Shown here: piece after piece, positions 38,182-49,364 of the stretch
How the letters are laid out: each line of letters starts with the position of its first letter
How positions within the stretch are numbered: position 1 is the first letter of the stretch
Assembly (NCBI GenBank): GCA_030428205.1
Contig: JAUIBK010000016.1
Coordinates: 11,454-75,453 of the forward strand
DNA: 64,000 nt
From: a bacterium
GTDB lineage: Bacteria; Bdellovibrionota_C; UBA2361; RFPC01
Reading direction: 5' to 3'
Notes under the pieces: generated by a model
What the model was told of the DNA's origin: nothing
Seen by the model: only the letters and a program-made list of their open reading frames with translations
Databases searched by the model: none
Translations under genes and position numbers: made by a program

Positions 38182-38343
38182 GAGGCGGAAGCGGATACCA
38201 AGAATAAGACCAAAACGAAGATATAGGTCAAGGCGGAGGCTGAGAAAAAGATAAAGAGCAAGGAGATCCTATTTCTCAGCCTCTATCTCAGTCTTCGTCT
38301 AGATCTTGGTTTTGGTCTTATTCTTGGCCTTGGTCTCCGCCTC
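38182..38343. repeat. Long imperfect palindrome of 6-bp tandem units, copy A. The same family is at 52864-53082.
   Basis: Arm GGCGGA AGCGGA TACCAA GAATAA GACCAA... pairs with TCTTGG TTTTGG TCTTAT TCTTGG CCTTGG TCTCCG, with a perfect 18-bp core. Confidence 0.6.
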
Positions 38344-38365: not shown

Positions 38366-38821
38366 TCAAAAATACACCACCGTAACCCCAGCATTCCCCT
38401 CATCAACCTTAAAATGCTTTACAGCTGATATCTCTCTCAATCTCTTATGAACAGCTTCCTGTACTTTCCCTGTTCCAATCCCGTGTACAACACGAAACGA
38501 ATCGTGACCAGCACGAAGTGCAGCATCAAGTGCGCTGTCGAGAGCTTCAAGTGCTTCGTGTACACGCTTGCCGTGAAAATCGATGGATGTTGGGGCCGAG
38601 TGTAGCGAATGTGCTTGTTTTGCTGGAGAGGTAAAAGCTCCTTTGGGAATCTCTTCTCTCTTAGATTTTTTCTTTTCAATTTTACGTAAATCTTGACACT
38701 TGCAACGCATTGAGAGGTTGCCAATTCGCACTTCAAACGTATTGCGAGCGAGTGATTGAACAATAATCCCGGATTTATTTAGCGGGATAACGAGGACACT
38801 ATCTCCTGGTTGAAGTTGCAT
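38366..38821 (-). CDS. Smr (small MutS-related) domain protein
   Basis: DFHGKRVHEALEALDSAL...VVHGIGTGKVQEAV Smr domain signature. Confidence 0.65.
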   Translation of the reverse strand: MQLQPGDSVLVIPLNKSGIIVQSLARNTFEVRIGNLSMRCKCQDLRKIEKKKSKREEIPKGAFTSPAKQAHSLHSAPTSIDFHGKRVHEALEALDSALDAALRAGHDSFRVVHGIGTGKVQEAVHKRLREISAVKHFKVDEGNAGVTVVYF

Positions 38822-38836: not shown

Positions 38837-40102
38837 TTACGAGAGAAGCTTTACGAGGTGATACTTCTTTTTTCCTGTACGAAGTACGAGTAGCTCTTGA
38901 GGTTCTGGAAGAGCTTCTTTCAGAGAGAGGGCTCCGTCAGTAATACGCTCATTGTTGAGATAAGCACCGCCATTTTTAATTAGTCTCTTGCATTCTCCCT
39001 TTGAAGAGATAGCACCAGAATTGACAAAGAGATCGAGCAAAGAGCTCTCTCGTGTATCGTGTAAAGGAAGCGAAGAGGAGGGGACATCGGAAAAAATCTC
39101 TTCTAGCTGCTCAGTTGAAAGCCCCTCAAGTGACCCACCAAAGAGAACTTGCGCTGAGCGTTTGGCGTCTTCAGTGGCATCTTTGCCGTGAATGAGTGTG
39201 CATACTTCATCCGCGAGTGTTTTTTGAGCGAGCCGTTTTTCAGGCGCTTGTTCTACACATCTTTCAAGCTCTGCAACTTTCTCTTTATCGAGAAAGGTAA
39301 AGATCTTAATGTAACGAATGACATCGCTATCGTCAGTATTGAGCCAGAACTGGTGAAGCTTGTAGGGACTTGTCAATTTCGGGTCGAGCCAAATAGCCCC
39401 ATCTTCTGATTTACCAAACTTTTTCCCTTGGCTGTTGGTGAGAAGAGGAAAGGAGAACGCAAATGCTTCACCAACATTCTTTCGACGGATGAGTTCAAGC
39501 CCAGCAGTGATGTTGCCCCACTGGTCAGAGCCCCCGATCTGCAGCCGGCAACCGTGATGCTTAAAGAGGTGGAGGTAATCAAATGCCTGTAGAGTCATGT
39601 AGCTAAATTCAGTAAATGATATACCAGCCCCTTCGACTCGTGATTTGACGACTTCTTTGGCAAGCATGTAGTTGACGGTAAAGTGCTTTCCAATATCACG
39701 CAGAAACTCGAGCATTGTGACGTCTTTGGTCCAGTCGAAATTGTCTACAAAAGTGGCCGTAATACCAATTCGCTCGTAGATAGCTTCAGTTTGCGCTTTT
39801 TGAGTGTCAACGTTTGCTTGGATCTCTTCGCGCGAAAGAAGTTGGCGCTCTTTATTCTTTCCTGAAGGGTCTCCAATTGAGCCAGTTGCGCCTCCAAAGA
39901 GGATAATAGGCTTATATCCTTCTTGAGCCATGCGAGCTGAAACGAGCAGGGGAATAAGGTTGCCCAGCTGCAAGCTCGTAGCTGTCGGGTCAAAGCCCAC
40001 GTAAAATGGCGCTCCAGCCGGTAATTTGCCTGCTATCTCGTCATCAGAGCGGTCTTGGAGGAGACCGCGCCACTCAAGGTCTTGGAATAATTCAACTGTC
40101 AT
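38837..40102 (-). CDS. tyrS: Tyrosyl-tRNA synthetase
   Basis: Class I motifs, KMSKS-like KFGKSE and a C-terminal S4-like domain. No T-box leader; only 137 bp lie upstream. Confidence 0.9.
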   Translation of the reverse strand: MTVELFQDLEWRGLLQDRSDDEIAGKLPAGAPFYVGFDPTATSLQLGNLIPLLVSARMAQEGYKPIILFGGATGSIGDPSGKNKERQLLSREEIQANVDTQKAQTEAIYERIGITATFVDNFDWTKDVTMLEFLRDIGKHFTVNYMLAKEVVKSRVEGAGISFTEFSYMTLQAFDYLHLFKHHGCRLQIGGSDQWGNITAGLELIRRKNVGEAFAFSFPLLTNSQGKKFGKSEDGAIWLDPKLTSPYKLHQFWLNTDDSDVIRYIKIFTFLDKEKVAELERCVEQAPEKRLAQKTLADEVCTLIHGKDATEDAKRSAQVLFGGSLEGLSTEQLEEIFSDVPSSSLPLHDTRESSLLDLFVNSGAISSKGECKRLIKNGGAYLNNERITDGALSLKEALPEPQELLVLRTGKKKYHLVKLLS

Positions 40103-40239: not shown

Positions 40240-40440
40240 ATGGCAAAAGCAGCGAAAGAAACCACTTTTCTCGTATCATCTGAGGGGACAGGGTATTTCT
40301 ACACGAACCGACGTAATAAGAAGAAGAACCGTGGCGATAGCAAGGTTTCTGTTCGTAAGTACGACCCCATTGCTCGAAAGCATGTGCTTTTCGAGGAGAA
40401 AAAACTCTCAAGGCTAAAGAAAAAGTACGTGCAGGCTTAG
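40240..40440 (+). CDS. rpmG: 50S ribosomal protein L33 with a C-terminal extension
   Basis: MAKAAKETTFLVSSEGTGYFYT...KYDPIARKHVLF resembles L33. Confidence 0.7.
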   Translation: MAKAAKETTFLVSSEGTGYFYTNRRNKKKNRGDSKVSVRKYDPIARKHVLFEEKKLSRLKKKYVQA

Positions 40441-40509: not shown

Positions 40510-40576
40510 TATTGTTGTATTGCTCTTTGCTTCGGTGCAAGGAGAGTGTTTTTCCCGTAGAGAGTAGTGTTGTTCT

Positions 40577-42727
40577 ATGGCTTTGCCCGTCTCTGAGAGT
40601 AAGCCCAAATCACCTCAAGAACTCACCGCTGCCGGTGGTCCTGGAATACAGCAACAAGACCCTCCTCTCGATATACCAGTGCAACAAGGGGCTGGAGAAC
40701 CAGCAGTTCTGTCCATCCCCGAGGAGAGTATTTCTCGTCTCTCTCGTATTGAAAAGATTCGACCACTCACGGAGAACTCGCGCATCCTTTTCGGTGCTTT
40801 TGCGGCAATAAACGTTCTGCTCTATCACCTTATTCTTCGGTCTCAAGGCTCAGAGGTGATGAGCAACGAGCTTTTGCTTGGGCTTTTCTGTGTTGTCTCT
40901 AGTGTGCTTGGTGCGCTCACCCTTGTTTTTTCACTCTCAGAGCTCTTCCGCTCAGGTTTTTCAGCGCTCCTGCGTGGTAAGCCTTCAATTGATACCTCGC
41001 TGATGGTGGCGCTTGTCGTTGGTATGGCTGCCATTGTGTATAGCCTCATTTTTGATTTTCAAACACTAAGCCGCTCGGGGTTTGCTGACCTTTATGTACT
41101 TGCTGCCTTTCTTCTTACGGTATGGAGATTTTTAGCAAGCGGATACAGTGAGGCGTTAGGTGATTCGCTCGGTTTTGATCTGCGAAAATACGTCTCAACA
41201 GTGCGTCTCTCCTCTTCTCAAGCTGAAGGTGAGGAGGCCAAAAAAGAGGTTCCTTATCAATCTCTCAAAGAGGGGGCTCAGTTCGAGCTACAAGCCGGTG
41301 ACATGGTGCCCACAGACGCAACGATACTCAAAGGCACGGCTCAGCTAAACGAGAGAAAATTTGGCGGTAAGGCGAGCTCGCACGTTCGCACCGAAGGACA
41401 GACCATTTTTGCTGGCTCTCGAATTGTCGTTGGAAAGCTTGTGTGTGAGGCGCTCTTGCGACCAGAAGATGCGACTATTACAAACTTTAGTTCAAAGCTT
41501 AAAGAGGTTCTTGTTCGTTCGAGGCAGCAAGCCAAAGAGCTCTGGAAGTATGCTCCAGTGCTTAATGCGCTCCTTGTTTTTACGGCAGCATGCTCTGGCG
41601 TGTATTGGTATCAAGAAGGCTTAACTCTGCTCCATACTGTCGAACTGATTATGGCTGTGCTCTTTCTTGCGCCGCTATTGCAGTTTGTTCTTATCGTTCC
41701 ACGTCTGACAGGTCTACTCCTTACGGATCTCTTTATGAAAGGGGCGCTTGTGCACTCTCCTGAAACGTTGCACAAGCTACGGAAACTTGAGCGGCTCACC
41801 CTCTATGTGCATGAGGATGATACGATAGGTGAACCACAGGCAACTTCGTTTGAGATACTCGATTCTCGAGTTGATGAAGAGGGGCTCCGTGCCGTGTTGC
41901 TTGCTATTCTTGGTGCTGTCGACGGCGATAGAGAGCGGTCTCTTGTGCAGTTTCTCTCTAAAGATTCAAAGGTAACACCTCTTCTCGATGTCGATGACCT
42001 CACGGTGTATCCGGGATACGGCTTGTGTGCAACGGTGCGCGGAGTTGAGTTTAGTGTTGGTCGCGAAGGCTTTTTGATTGACCGTGGTGTGCAAATGACC
42101 GCTTCTGAGATAGGCCAAGACACTGAAACTGAAGAGTGGCTCTATATTGCACTTGGCGATGCTCTGGTAGCTCGCAGTAAGTTTATGAGAGCGTTCTATC
42201 AAGACGGAAGAGAGCTCCACGAGAGACTCCGTGCGCTTGGTATTCGGTGTTCGCTTGTCAGTGATTCAATAGATCAGAAGACGCTCGATCATGTAGGTAA
42301 GATTACAGGACTTGACCTGAGCCAGATTCATGGTGGAGCCTCTCTTGAAGAGCTTACTCGCCTCTGTGAGCGCGGGGAGGGACCACTTGCTACGTATGGA
42401 ACTTCTACCGTTCCAAAGGAGCTTCAAGCTCACGGACTCTCTTTTCGACTCTTTGACACCGTTTTGTGGGACCTTAAAGCGGGAGATGTGCTTCTCTTTG
42501 ATAGAAACCTATCGGTTCTCCCAAAGATCGTTTCGGCTGTAAGAAGATTCTATAGACTGAGAAATGTTGGAGTCGCTGTGTTGGCCGCACTCTCAGTGGT
42601 TTTACTCTTGAGTGCCTGTCTTGCTGCTGTGCCGCCACTTGCGCTGCTGCTGAGCTCTATGTTTGCTGCGAGTGCTTTTGGGCTTCTCTCGTTTCTCTTC
42701 CTCCCTGAGCTGCCTAAAGCCTCCTGA
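40577..42727 (+). CDS. P-type-ATPase-like membrane protein with degenerate catalytic motifs
   Basis: P-type architecture with N- and C-terminal transmembrane helices. HEDDTIGEP replaces DKTGT, FGGKAS replaces TGES and SDSI replaces TGDN. Confidence 0.45.
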   Translation: MALPVSESKPKSPQELTAAGGPGIQQQDPPLDIPVQQGAGEPAVLSIPEESISRLSRIEKIRPLTENSRILFGAFAAINVLLYHLILRSQGSEVMSNELLLGLFCVVSSVLGALTLVFSLSELFRSGFSALLRGKPSIDTSLMVALVVGMAAIVYSLIFDFQTLSRSGFADLYVLAAFLLTVWRFLASGYSEALGDSLGFDLRKYVSTVRLSSSQAEGEEAKKEVPYQSLKEGAQFELQAGDMVPTDATILKGTAQLNERKFGGKASSHVRTEGQTIFAGSRIVVGKLVCEALLRPEDATITNFSSKLKEVLVRSRQQAKELWKYAPVLNALLVFTAACSGVYWYQEGLTLLHTVELIMAVLFLAPLLQFVLIVPRLTGLLLTDLFMKGALVHSPETLHKLRKLERLTLYVHEDDTIGEPQATSFEILDSRVDEEGLRAVLLAILGAVDGDRERSLVQFLSKDSKVTPLLDVDDLTVYPGYGLCATVRGVEFSVGREGFLIDRGVQMTASEIGQDTETEEWLYIALGDALVARSKFMRAFYQDGRELHERLRALGIRCSLVSDSIDQKTLDHVGKITGLDLSQIHGGASLEELTRLCERGEGPLATYGTSTVPKELQAHGLSFRLFDTVLWDLKAGDVLLFDRNLSVLPKIVSAVRRFYRLRNVGVAVLAALSVVLLLSACLAAVPPLALLLSSMFAASAFGLLSFLFLPELPKAS

Positions 42728-42840
42728 AATTGTAAATACTTATACATGCAGTGCGTAGATTCCCGTATTCGTCAAAAAAATGACATCGATTGGCCTTTGT
42801 CTCCATCGTAATGGCAGAAGTGGCTACCCAATGGGAGGAG

Positions 42841-43209
42841 ATGATGTCTGAAGCACAATCAAACACTTGGTCAGGCTCAAATGGGAGAACACAAGTCTTT
42901 CTCGTAGATAATATTGCTGAAGAACTTGAGGGATATGCGAGGGGGCCTGAAAGAGCGCTCCTCACGGCGCTCCTCTTTGATGGTATTCAAGCCTATATGA
43001 ATTACGCTATGAGTGATGACTCACGCCCTACGCAAGATAAGTATCGAGAGGCCTACCTGTGGGTGCATACCACTGGCTCAGAGTACGTTTTTAGTTTTGA
43101 AAACGTTTGTGAAGCGCTTGGCATGAACCCCGACTATCTACGATTAGGTTTAGCGAACGCCACAAACTCTCAAACCTTTGAGTGGCGCAGATCGCGTAGA
43201 AATTTCTAG
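42841..43209 (+). CDS. Small hypothetical protein, paralogous to 49077-49364
   Basis: It shares the motif RxLLxAxL...EAxLW...SFxxxCEALxxxPxxLR with 49077-49364. GGGAGGAG RBS before the ATG at 42841. Confidence 0.45.
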   Translation: MMSEAQSNTWSGSNGRTQVFLVDNIAEELEGYARGPERALLTALLFDGIQAYMNYAMSDDSRPTQDKYREAYLWVHTTGSEYVFSFENVCEALGMNPDYLRLGLANATNSQTFEWRRSRRNF

Positions 43210-43390: not shown

Positions 43391-45322
43391 TTATCCTGTT
43401 TCCTTCATACTTCTCTGATTTATTTGAGCTTGCAGCTCTCTTGCTTGGGCGATGAGGGAATCAACGCCAGTGGAAGGAGATTGAGTCCCTTCTCCATAAG
43501 GTCCTCTGTGTTCTGTTGGAAGAAGGGAAGCTACTCGATCACCTAACAGATGAGCCACTACTTGAGGGGAAGAGTTGTTCGCATGTTTGGTAAGCGACTC
43601 GGCTGGGAGTGGTTCGCCAAAGACAACTTGTATTGGACGAGAGGAACTGATCTTCGTAGTTTTTCCGTTTGAGAAGTTGGCGCCACCTACTTGGCACCAG
43701 GGCACGATAACGAGATCGCTCGGAAGTCCGCCACTATTAGAGAAAGCTGTAAGTGTCTCCATAAAGTGTGTTCCAAACGAGTTCATTGCCGTTGGTGAGC
43801 ATTCATTTTCAGGGAAGAGAGCGAGAGCATCAGCTGGGGACCGTAAAGCGTCAAGCCCTATTCTCATTGCCTCTTCGTATGGTGGAAGAGCTGGACTTGC
43901 AGGAAGATTTGTCGAGCGAGGTATGATAATCCTATTTGCGGCTGCTCCTAGAATGCTTTTAGCAAACTGACTGGAATAGTGCTCGTCTTTCTCGGTATGG
44001 GTAAGACCGTCAGCTATTCTCCGTAGACCTGAGGAACGTAAAGCGTGGGAGAGAAGAGTTGCATCACCCCAGCCACTGTGGTTTCCAATGAAAAGAAGTT
44101 TTTTGCCGTCACGATAGAGATCCGTGAGGGCATCCGCTCCAGTAACCTGAAAGTTTTCGTGTGTGAAGATGGACTGTGTCAGAGCTGTTGTGAGAAATTG
44201 GAGGGACCGACTTGCCGGAGAAAGTTCAATCGAAGCAGTTTCTTGAGGTTGTCCTTCAAATTCTCTGTCGAGTGCGGATTTGTATTCTTCAACATAATTG
44301 TTGAGTTCTATAAGTTCACTGTGATCGAGTCTGCTGAGTGCGCTGTGTAAAGCAAACGCGACAGCATCTCCCGCAAAACCGTGTCCGGGAAGAGTCGCCG
44401 AAAGATCTTGAGAGAGTTCGTGTCTGAGACTATCTGCCGATAGAGAAACTCCTTTGCCCCACTTTAAGGTGGGTTGAGTGCTTGGAGATGAGGCTTTGTG
44501 ATCTGTACGGCCAGCGTAGAGTTCTTGTTCTTGGGCGTATTGAGTTACAACGTCAATCCCCTTGGCCCGGCCTGCTCGGATATCGGTAGCATGAATGTTA
44601 TGTAGTCCTGGATAGACGAGAACCGTCTCCTTGAATCCTGGAATTTTGTTGTACATCCTCCGAAAGCCGAAGAATCGATCTGCATGAGGATTCTCTTGGA
44701 TTTCGGGAGTGTGAGTCCAGAGTGTATTTTGTGAGATTGCCTTTTCAAAGTTGTCTGGGCCAAGGAGTACATAATTATTTTTCCCCCAGAGTGAGCGTAG
44801 ACGTAAGTCGTCAAAAGTTCGTTTATCCGTGGGTATAAAAACTCCGGGTTCTTCGAGGGAGTCATCAGGGGAATCGAAAACGGTGATACCTACATTTTCA
44901 AGTGCTCTGCGAGCCATTTCATGTCTGTGCTCAAAGCTTGAAGATTGAGGTTTGTATGGATTTTGAAAAACAACACCGAGATTAACTCGAGAAAAGCCTA
45001 GTTTGAGTGTTTCTTGAATGATTTCTAAGTGGTGAGGTCCAATCGGATCAAATGTCCCTTCGAACCAAACAGAGCACTCGTGCGCATGTGAAGGAGCGCG
45101 AAAAGGATGTTGTTGCAAATGAAGCAGTGCTCGTGGGGGAATATTTGAGGTATCAACGAGTTCTATTGAGTTGTTTTCCCTTGAGGCATCTAGATTTGCT
45201 GCAGGGTGCTCCAGTGCAGCGAGTGGAGAGACGGGAAGAGCTGGCCTTTCTGGTGTGGATTCTGCTGGCTGTTGATTCCCAGGCTGTTCTGATAGATCAG
45301 GTTGCTTCGGATCAGTTTGCAT
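43391..45322 (-). CDS. Fusion protein: NadD-like nucleotidyltransferase domain plus PlsC-type acyltransferase domain
   Basis: GTFDPIGPHHL (HxGH) and IHATDIR (ISSTxIR-like) at the N-terminus. FIGNHSGWGD (NHx4D) acyltransferase motif at the C-terminus. Confidence 0.5.
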   Translation of the reverse strand: MQTDPKQPDLSEQPGNQQPAESTPERPALPVSPLAALEHPAANLDASRENNSIELVDTSNIPPRALLHLQQHPFRAPSHAHECSVWFEGTFDPIGPHHLEIIQETLKLGFSRVNLGVVFQNPYKPQSSSFEHRHEMARRALENVGITVFDSPDDSLEEPGVFIPTDKRTFDDLRLRSLWGKNNYVLLGPDNFEKAISQNTLWTHTPEIQENPHADRFFGFRRMYNKIPGFKETVLVYPGLHNIHATDIRAGRAKGIDVVTQYAQEQELYAGRTDHKASSPSTQPTLKWGKGVSLSADSLRHELSQDLSATLPGHGFAGDAVAFALHSALSRLDHSELIELNNYVEEYKSALDREFEGQPQETASIELSPASRSLQFLTTALTQSIFTHENFQVTGADALTDLYRDGKKLLFIGNHSGWGDATLLSHALRSSGLRRIADGLTHTEKDEHYSSQFAKSILGAAANRIIIPRSTNLPASPALPPYEEAMRIGLDALRSPADALALFPENECSPTAMNSFGTHFMETLTAFSNSGGLPSDLVIVPWCQVGGANFSNGKTTKISSSRPIQVVFGEPLPAESLTKHANNSSPQVVAHLLGDRVASLLPTEHRGPYGEGTQSPSTGVDSLIAQARELQAQINQRSMKETG

Positions 45323-48589: not shown

Positions 48590-48868
48590 TTATTTCTCTT
48601 CGTACTTTCGGATACGTACTTTCTCAACACCAACGGCATCATGTGCGAGAAACTGAAGTTGTTGGAAGGTAGCATCGCGTTTAAGATATTCCTCGTCTTC
48701 ATCACTGCCCGGCTCAATGAAGAGCTCTTCGTGCTCGAAGTGGTAGGAGTTTGCTCGACGGAGGTGCTCGAGGAGAGCGAGTTGAAGCTTTTCGTCTAGG
48801 CTTTGAAGGAGCTTTTCCCAGAGTTCAGGTTGGTTTCCTTTTGCTGTTCCGCCCGCATCAGAAGACAT
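48590..48868 (-). CDS. Hypothetical small acidic protein
   Basis: The ORF abuts yacG. No recognisable domain. Confidence 0.35.
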   Translation of the reverse strand: MSSDAGGTAKGNQPELWEKLLQSLDEKLQLALLEHLRRANSYHFEHEELFIEPGSDEDEEYLKRDATFQQLQFLAHDAVGVEKVRIRKYEEK

Positions 48869-49076: not shown

Positions 49077-49364
49077 CTACATTGCGGCTTCTTGGCGTTG
49101 TGGAGTGGCGTCTCTGTTGGCTTGAAGTTTAAGGGCGTTGCGAAGGCTTGGCATGTCAAGATCGAGTGCTTCGCAGATAAAGCGGAAAGAGAGTGGGGCA
49201 TCCGTTGGTTCATCGTCCATGAGCCATAACTCAGCACCGTCACGGAGATCCCCGTCTCCTGTGAGGTAGTCAGTGATAGCGCGTTGGAGCACAGCTGCTA
49301 GGAGACGGCGCTCTGGAACTTGTGTGTTGCCAACAGGAACTTCTGCGTTTGACCAAAATTTCAT
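49077..49364 (-). CDS. Small hypothetical protein, paralogous to 42841-43209
   Basis: RRLLAAVLQRAITDYL...AELWL...SFRFICEALDLDMPSLRNAL shares the motif of 42841-43209. Confidence 0.4.
   Translation of the reverse strand: MKFWSNAEVPVGNTQVPERRLLAAVLQRAITDYLTGDGDLRDGAELWLMDDEPTDAPLSFRFICEALDLDMPSLRNALKLQANRDATPQRQEAAM

Follow-up and report, generated by a model that had tools for sequence, protein, structure and literature searches.

What is left of an ion pump once each of its catalytic motifs has been replaced, and what would such a protein be kept for? P-type ATPases count among the most thoroughly studied enzymes of membranes, and DKTGT, TGE and GDGxND are taken to be universal motifs of the group. 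The question is raised by a gene in a 64,000-nucleotide stretch of contig JAUIBK010000016.1 (referred to as the window in the rest of the text), from a genome assigned to the Bdellovibrionota_C. The initial annotation of this gene, drawn from the sequence, described a membrane protein of P-type topology in which all catalytic signatures are altered, and proposed a catalytically dead ATPase retained under selection, possibly as a sensor or scaffold. Our analysis goes beyond that description in three observations, namely the size of the family, the neighbouring rpmG gene and an Asp that most relatives keep in the column of the phosphorylated residue. From the pattern of sequence loss and conservation we consider it fairly probable that this catalytically dead P1B derivative serves as a membrane-anchored, non-hydrolysing binding or regulatory module.

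40577-42727, plus strand: predicted P1B-type ATPase-like pseudoenzyme of 716 amino acids (Pfam, NCBIfam, alignment to PDB sequences, AlphaFold2 model with Foldseek search, hydropathy)

The open reading frame (ORF) starts with ATG, a start backed by the N-terminus MA(L/I)P... that is common to the orthologues. In Pfam, the sole match is the model of the actuator (A) domain, E1-E2_ATPase (residues 219-363, E 1.7e-12, 47.7 bits for a gathering cutoff of 28.1), and no N-terminal HMA metal-binding domain was found. The NCBIfam scan placed the P1B heavy-metal model TIGR01525 on top (2e-18), with none of the cutoffs reached (66.6 bits vs 346 for TIGR01525, 42.3 vs 397 for TIGR01511 and 47.6 vs 313 for TIGR01512). 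Using phmmer against PDB sequences, residues 113-645 aligned to positions 55-577 of Archaeoglobus fulgidus CopA (E 2.4e-7), followed by Legionella pneumophila CopA, KdpB, HMA4 and ZntA. The AlphaFold2 model (mean pLDDT 66, residues 1-68 disordered) contains, in order, four long helices, a beta-rich domain, further helices, a Rossmann-like phosphorylation (P) domain into which the nucleotide-binding (N) domain is inserted, and a C-terminal helical hairpin. Searched against the PDB with Foldseek, this model retrieved L. pneumophila CopA first (4bbj, 1.8e-25), then A. fulgidus CopA (7r0g), ATP7B and ZntA, with KdpB and P2/P3 pumps lower down and many P-type structures between 1e-25 and 1e-16. Hydropathy and the model together indicate eight membrane helices, four before the A domain, two between A and P and two at the C-terminus, giving the following layout.

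Residues ~69-206 (MA, MB, M1, M2), ~296-387 (M3-M4) and ~647-710 (M5-M6): membrane parts
Residues 1-68 (disordered N-terminus), ~207-295 (A), ~388-420 and 538-646 (P) and ~421-537 (N): soluble parts

The protein is thus a P1B-type P-type ATPase by ancestry and fold. The intact ORF and the P-type topology of the initial annotation were both borne out, and its reservation that profile searches might reveal no P-type homology was answered by profile and fold searches that agree on P1B homology, the predicted structure matching Cu and Zn ATPases best. The HAD-type Pfam models PF00702, PF12710 and PF08282 matched neither this protein nor the six relatives scanned, and none is recorded for the members with precomputed Pfam matches; for comparison, PF00702 is present in all canonical P1B matches.

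Which residues have been lost was read from alignments to canonical P1B ATPases.

41360-41377, plus strand: TGE(S) position of the A domain, FGGKAS (residues 262-267), with K265 in place of the catalytic Glu
41669-41686, plus strand: CPx position of the fourth transmembrane helix (TM4), APLLQF (residues 365-370), without Cys or His and with Pro absent from its canonical place
41801-41836, plus strand: DKTGT position of the P domain, LYVHEDDTIGEP (residues 409-420), with Y410 in the phospho-Asp column
42254-42271, plus strand: TGD position of the P domain, LVSDSI (residues 560-565), assigned by alignment
42392-42424, plus strand: position of the GDGxNDxP hinge, TYGTSTVPKEL (residues 606-616), both Mg-site Asp being gone

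Within TM4 the CPx column itself corresponds to PLL (residues 366-368). The HP motif of the N domain (SEHPL) is gone as well, the canonical H (100%) and P (92%) aligning to G450-D451. The strings that the initial annotation had equated with TGES, DKTGT and TGDN, that is FGGKAS, LYVHEDDTIG(EP) and (L)VSDSI, are all present and fall in the motif columns, and the GDGxND hinge that it could not recognise is the stretch TYGTSTVPKEL. Judged from these columns, autophosphorylation at the canonical site is impossible, since a Tyr occupies it; the ligands for Mg2+ and phosphate are missing, as is the Glu needed for dephosphorylation, and no metal site is left in the membrane. With DKTGT, TGE, TGD, GDGxND, HP and CPx lost, the protein can support neither an E1P/E2P cycle nor the canonical binding of a transported metal, and no ATP-dependent metal transport is predicted.

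Is this loss peculiar to one strain, or does it characterize a family? A word-index homologue search returned two relatives only, P0002 (73% identity) and P0003 (33%), and the same search with a profile yielded one true family member beyond the query, the remaining matches being canonical P1B pumps. The tiny family suggested by the word-index search was rejected when an exhaustive profile search, covering 1.84 billion cluster representatives, found far more members, with 130 representatives of 50%-identity clusters at E <= 1e-30 and scores declining smoothly from 395 to ~120 bits. Canonical pumps carrying every motif start at P0256 (8e-35) in this profile list and are mixed among the weakest family members. 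The family spans at least 140 sequence clusters with intact ORFs, down to ~20% identity. All named records come from metagenome-assembled genomes (MAGs) labelled Bdellovibrionota, Bdellovibrionales, Oligoflexia, Deltaproteobacteria or Dadabacteria, the last probably mislabelled; P0002 is from a 'Bdellovibrionales bacterium' MAG.

The motif columns were then read in 143 full-length aligned members, 34 of which come from genomic loci. Not one of the 143 has DKTGT, TGE, CPx, TGD or GDGxND in register, and the pattern GDG.ND matches no family member. A stray DKTG string in P0177 (residue 181) and a TGEA in P0210 (residue 97) are both out of register. The column of the TGE Glu holds L, V, A, S, R, Y or K and never a conserved E, the CPx columns are aliphatic (L/I/V), and the HP column holds D, E, S or G. 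Conservation across the family is likewise absent from the K, T, G and T positions of DKTGT, from the Asp of TGD and the two of GDGxND, from the Lys of the P domain and from the His of the N domain. Since all aligned members lack the canonical motifs, their loss is ancient and family-wide rather than a strain-specific decay; the initial annotation had noted that orthologues with an intact DKTGT would point to such decay, and none of the 143 has one. A very divergent sub-branch (P0266 at L090 5001-6971, P0261, P0265, P0271, P0272, P0275, P0277 and P0282) has signatures of its own, 'xDPS...' at the DKTGT position and 'LLVRGxESD' at the GDGxND position.

In the phospho-Asp column most relatives keep an acidic residue: of the 143 members, 89 have D and 14 have E, while 7 have H and 4 have Y. 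Together with new and almost invariant acidic and basic residues in the N domain, this would favour an enzyme of altered chemistry, such as a phosphatase or phosphotransferase, or else a switch that depends on a nucleotide, with the kept Asp or D429, R431, E497 and R503 as the residues in use. For the protein of the window we regard such an activity as very unlikely: it has a Tyr and its nearest relatives a Tyr or a His, and no acidic residue, in that column, the rest of the HAD site (Lys, Thr and Gly within DKTGT, the Asp residues of TGD and GDGxND and the Lys of the P domain) is unconserved, and Hydrolase/HAD Pfam models match none of the seven members scanned. Because these catalytic residues are unconserved family-wide, a HAD-type active site is absent.

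The loss of every catalytic motif, along with the absence of the gene from some related loci such as L031, could also be what is expected of a decaying pseudogene or a functionless relic whose ORF is intact by chance. We compared the gene with that of its closest orthologue, L002, and obtained a pN of 0.18 and a pS of 0.79. As synonymous sites are saturated in this comparison, the ratio of nonsynonymous to synonymous substitution rates (dN/dS) was taken from three closer, unsaturated pairs within the family, for which it was 0.073, 0.114 and 0.130. The family is under strong purifying selection. Intact ORFs in over 140 clusters, dN/dS values of 0.07-0.13, residues that are invariant in this family specifically and a fixed place after rpmG (see below) make a relic extremely improbable, and we consider this reading effectively refuted by the conservation data. 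The proposal that the ATPase is dead and kept under selection is upheld by the same values and by the deep synteny of the locus.

Where does this selection act? Conservation is highest in the N domain (0.43), followed by the A domain (0.375) and the P domain (0.32), and it falls to 0.28 in M3-M4, 0.27 in MA-M2, 0.26 in M5-M6 and 0.12 in the N-terminus.

41861-42187, plus strand: N domain, the best-conserved part of the family (near-invariant residues D429, R431, G482, G495, E497, L500, R503, G504, V505)

Several residues are near-invariant in the family and not in canonical pumps, namely D429 (100%), R431 (98%), E497 (99%), R503, G504, V505 and F626, and the N domain carries the family motif FSVGxExFLIxRGV. 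The N domain also keeps the glycines of the CopA adenine pocket, G482 and G495 standing in the columns of the canonical GxG and VG glycines. In the membrane, none of the 207 positions of MA-M2 and M5-M6 exceeds a conservation of 0.6, and the family alignment contains no conserved polar or charged residue and no conserved Cys, His or Met in the helices. The membrane positions that are conserved (F335, A337, W344, G348, L362 and F386) include no charged residue and no metal ligand.

This distribution bears on whether the membrane domain could itself be functional, as a passive channel, a facilitator or a structural component that the headpiece would gate or plug. Eight membrane helices are kept in all full-length members, and the conserved M3/M4 positions W344, G348 and L362 are common to real pumps, as such a function would require. 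Nevertheless, the membrane segments are the least conserved (0.26-0.28) and the cytoplasmic domains the most constrained, and TM4-TM6 keep none of the canonical ion-site residues, so that we rate a channel or facilitator as quite unlikely. Because constraint sits on the N and A domains and the membrane helices have no conserved polar residue, a binding module seems a better description of the protein than a pump. We propose that selection would act mainly on the cytoplasmic headpiece, on the face of the N domain that surrounds what was the nucleotide pocket (G482, G495, E497, R503, D429 and R431, the putative binding site) and on the core of the A domain, the membrane part being constrained only as hydrophobic helices that would provide an anchor. 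The headpiece may bind a small ligand, possibly a nucleotide, in the remodelled pocket, or it may bind a partner protein, the first candidate being the small helical protein encoded immediately downstream (42841-43209). Our confidence in any specific partner is much lower than in the binding role itself. The sensor or scaffold role suggested by the initial annotation is consistent with this pattern, in which conserved N and A domains stand above plain membrane helices.

The gene lies in the following surroundings.

40240-40440, plus strand: rpmG, ribosomal protein L33 (Pfam Ribosomal_L33, 1.3e-9), Cys-free and with a Lys-rich C-terminal extension
38837-40102, minus strand: tyrS
38366-38821, minus strand: Smr-domain gene
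40523-40544, plus strand: terminator-like hairpin with a T-run, found by pattern scan as a consensus match only

A scan of a genome collection anchored on the small downstream protein gave 80 loci, 41 of which form a close group. L33 lies directly 5' of the ATPase-like gene and on the same strand in 26 of the 26 loci with enough upstream DNA, at a median gap of 48 nt. It also adjoins four remote members (P0164, P0234, P0259 and P0266), and P0200 has an unidentified 70-aa gene at this place. The gene order of the window is repeated at P0003, L003 and L004, the succession Smr-tyrS ... rpmG-ATPase-like-small-gene is found again at L090 (the P0266 locus, the one covered from the divergent sub-branch), and gene order persists even at 20-25% identity. 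The ATPase-like gene is probably co-transcribed with rpmG. In the window, the spacer between the two measures 136 nt, compared to 14-65 nt in most relatives, and contains the hairpin at 40523-40544, which may attenuate read-through. The L33 copies beside the ATPase-like genes, in the window and the 26 loci, are Cys-free or have one stray Cys, and their C-terminal extension is lineage-specific and Lys-rich (KKLSKLKKKY...), giving a length of 64-88 aa vs ~55 aa typically.

Cys-free L33 paralogues belong to zinc-starvation regulons in other bacteria, P-type ATPases can dimerise, and pseudoenzymes commonly regulate active paralogues. The protein could on these grounds be a regulator or decoy in metal homeostasis, which, by partnering an active P1B pump or by giving a metallochaperone or metal sensor a docking site, would modulate Cu/Zn export without pumping; an old operon of rpmG and a metal ATPase could have been its origin. 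In favour of this, P1B pumps for Cu and Zn are its nearest relatives by sequence and fold, and the L33 copies found here all lack Cys, apart from the stray residue already mentioned. However, the protein lacks both an HMA domain and CPx, its membrane helices show no conserved Cys, His or Met, L33 looks like a housekeeping copy that is very highly conserved across loci, and neither the window nor the conserved neighbourhood contains an active P1B gene, a chaperone or a metal regulator. We find this regulatory role in metal export unlikely. A bolder form of the binding-module reading, which we put forward tentatively and regard as doubtful, holds that this is the first natural family of pseudo-P-type ATPases, in which a pump scaffold has become a membrane-anchored receptor or regulator whose pocket senses a ligand or holds a partner, with expression hard-wired to the L33 gene. 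If so, the link to L33 would tie ribosome production or growth to a membrane or metabolic signal in a deep, uncultured, Bdellovibrionota-labelled lineage.

Downstream, the candidate partner and its relatives are arranged as follows.

42841-43209, plus strand: all-helical protein of ~120 aa without known fold or family, the usual downstream neighbour
42771-42784, plus strand: palindrome GTCAAAAAAATGAC, of the form GTCA-N6-TGAC, followed by A, ~19 nt and CATC, 57 nt upstream of the small gene
49077-49364, minus strand: divergent 95-aa paralogue of the small protein (hmmsearch 34.9 bits; hhalign probability 96.4%, E 1e-9)
48590-48868, minus strand: conserved hypothetical protein of 92 aa, whose cluster is a neighbour in 27 of the 41 loci

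The small gene starts at 42841 or 42844, and NCBI calls its start at 42811. The ATPase-like gene precedes it on the same strand in 33 of the 41 close-group loci, with a gap of at least 185 nt. Among the remote members, P0200, P0259 and P0266 are followed by a gene for a ~116-127-aa product, P0234 by an ~80-aa fragment at a contig end and P0164 by yacG. The paralogue at 49077-49364 escaped a plain tblastn search of the window with the small protein but was detected by profile methods, so that the small gene does belong to a duplicated family as first annotated. The cluster of the paralogue occurs in 25 of the 41 loci, accompanied by the 48590-48868 protein (87-92 aa in relatives) and often by a YacG-like zinc-finger gene. 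The 48590-48868 protein has no Pfam or PADLOC match, and the product of 49077-49364 also lacks a known domain. More distant homologues of the small protein (L044-L085, from Binatia, Deltaproteobacteria and other MAGs) have ~150 aa, occur without the ATPase-like gene and typically have a gene for a DegP/HtrA-like protease downstream and a RibBA-like gene nearby, a setting that offers no functional clue.

The N6 of the palindrome is A/T-rich, and the ~45-nt block that contains it is almost the same in L002 as in the window, even though synonymous sites between the two are saturated. The palindrome is found at the same position in 12 of the 41 loci as an exact match and in 3 more with one mismatch, for 30 exact matches in 834 kb overall; L001, L002, L003, L006, L016, L029, L031, L034, L035, L038 and L039 share its position with the window. 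It is probably the small gene's own promoter or operator, serving a sigma or transcription factor.

A binding module that works with the small protein must be weighed against several observations. An own promoter-like element for the small gene weakens the case for a single transcript with the ATPase-like gene. Moreover, L031 (5394-6321) is a natural deletion variant in which the ATPase-like gene has been lost and rpmG directly adjoins the small gene, and at L027, L036 and L040 the ATPase-like gene is also absent upstream of the small gene. The two genes are therefore not obligate partners, and the ATPase-like gene is not indispensable. Their adjacency may reflect inherited synteny of a stable housekeeping region (tyrS, Smr, rpmG, yacG and a cysteine-desulfurase-like gene) rather than functional coupling. 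As for the protein, 62% of the 143 relatives keep an Asp in the phospho-Asp column, which leaves room for residual or altered chemistry in those members. The confidence of the AlphaFold2 model (pLDDT 66) is only moderate. Finally, any specific ligand or partner is put forward only as a candidate.

Elsewhere in the window, no second P-type ATPase is encoded. A context of anti-phage defence was considered and rejected, there being no PADLOC match and a housekeeping neighbourhood. An Rfam scan of 36-52 kb revealed no known RNA besides a sub-threshold hairpin match. An imperfect inverted repeat of 57 nt (77% complementary, loop of 48 nt) lies at 38182-38343, flanked by the stop of the Smr-domain gene on one side and by the start of a Na+/alanine symporter gene on the other, and has sub-threshold Rfam hairpin matches on both strands. 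At 43391-45322 (minus strand), a gene codes for 643 aa with an N-terminal cytidylyl/adenylyltransferase-like (NadD-like) domain and a weak acyltransferase match, which makes it an unusual fusion; relatives have no syntenic counterpart.

How does this protein relate to systems already described? Neither the full-text literature that we searched, a limited library, nor a 2023 review on the 'enigmas' of P-type ATPases yielded an account of a family of such ATPases that is catalytically dead, and to our knowledge no pseudoenzyme family derived from a P-type ATPase has been described. An architecture kept long after its motifs were lost implies that the scaffold must serve some use besides pumping, and the family amounts to a natural experiment on what the movements or surfaces of the A, P and N domains can do without phosphorylation. 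It also calls for caution in automatic annotation, as Pfam detects the A domain only and the NCBI pipeline names the product of P0002 'hypothetical protein'. With its fixed linkage to rpmG and two uncharacterised small helical proteins nearby, the locus offers a small testable module in a poorly known lineage.

The closest known systems are the P1B pumps, with CopA of A. fulgidus and L. pneumophila, ZntA and ATP7A/B providing the best matches in sequence and fold. The protein shares with them the helices MA, MB and M1-M6, the placing of the A-domain beta-barrel after M2 and before M3, and a P domain that links M4 to M5 and has the N domain inserted, as well as structural residues such as GDxVPxDG, the glycines of AG(S/T)xxxxG and the GxG and VG glycines of the N domain. 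Unlike them, it has no DKTGT, TGE, TGD, GDGxNDxP, HP or CPx, no other transmembrane metal ligand and no HMA domain. Given these missing motifs, ligands and domain, and its low TIGR01525 score, it cannot work as the P1B pumps do. The second-best group of PDB matches is KdpB, the P1A ATPase of KdpFABC, a case in which a P-type subunit works together with partners from separate genes and does not carry the ion path alone; in contrast to the 716-aa protein, KdpB is fully active with all motifs, and no KdpA- or KdpC-like partner is encoded near the gene studied here. The nearest likeness in evolutionary behaviour is to pseudokinases, pseudophosphatases and inactive HAD-fold proteins, which display the same pattern of a kept fold, lost catalytic residues, purifying selection and new conserved surface residues. 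By its sequence, the 716-aa protein behaves like a classical pseudoenzyme, from a family previously undescribed within the literature searched.

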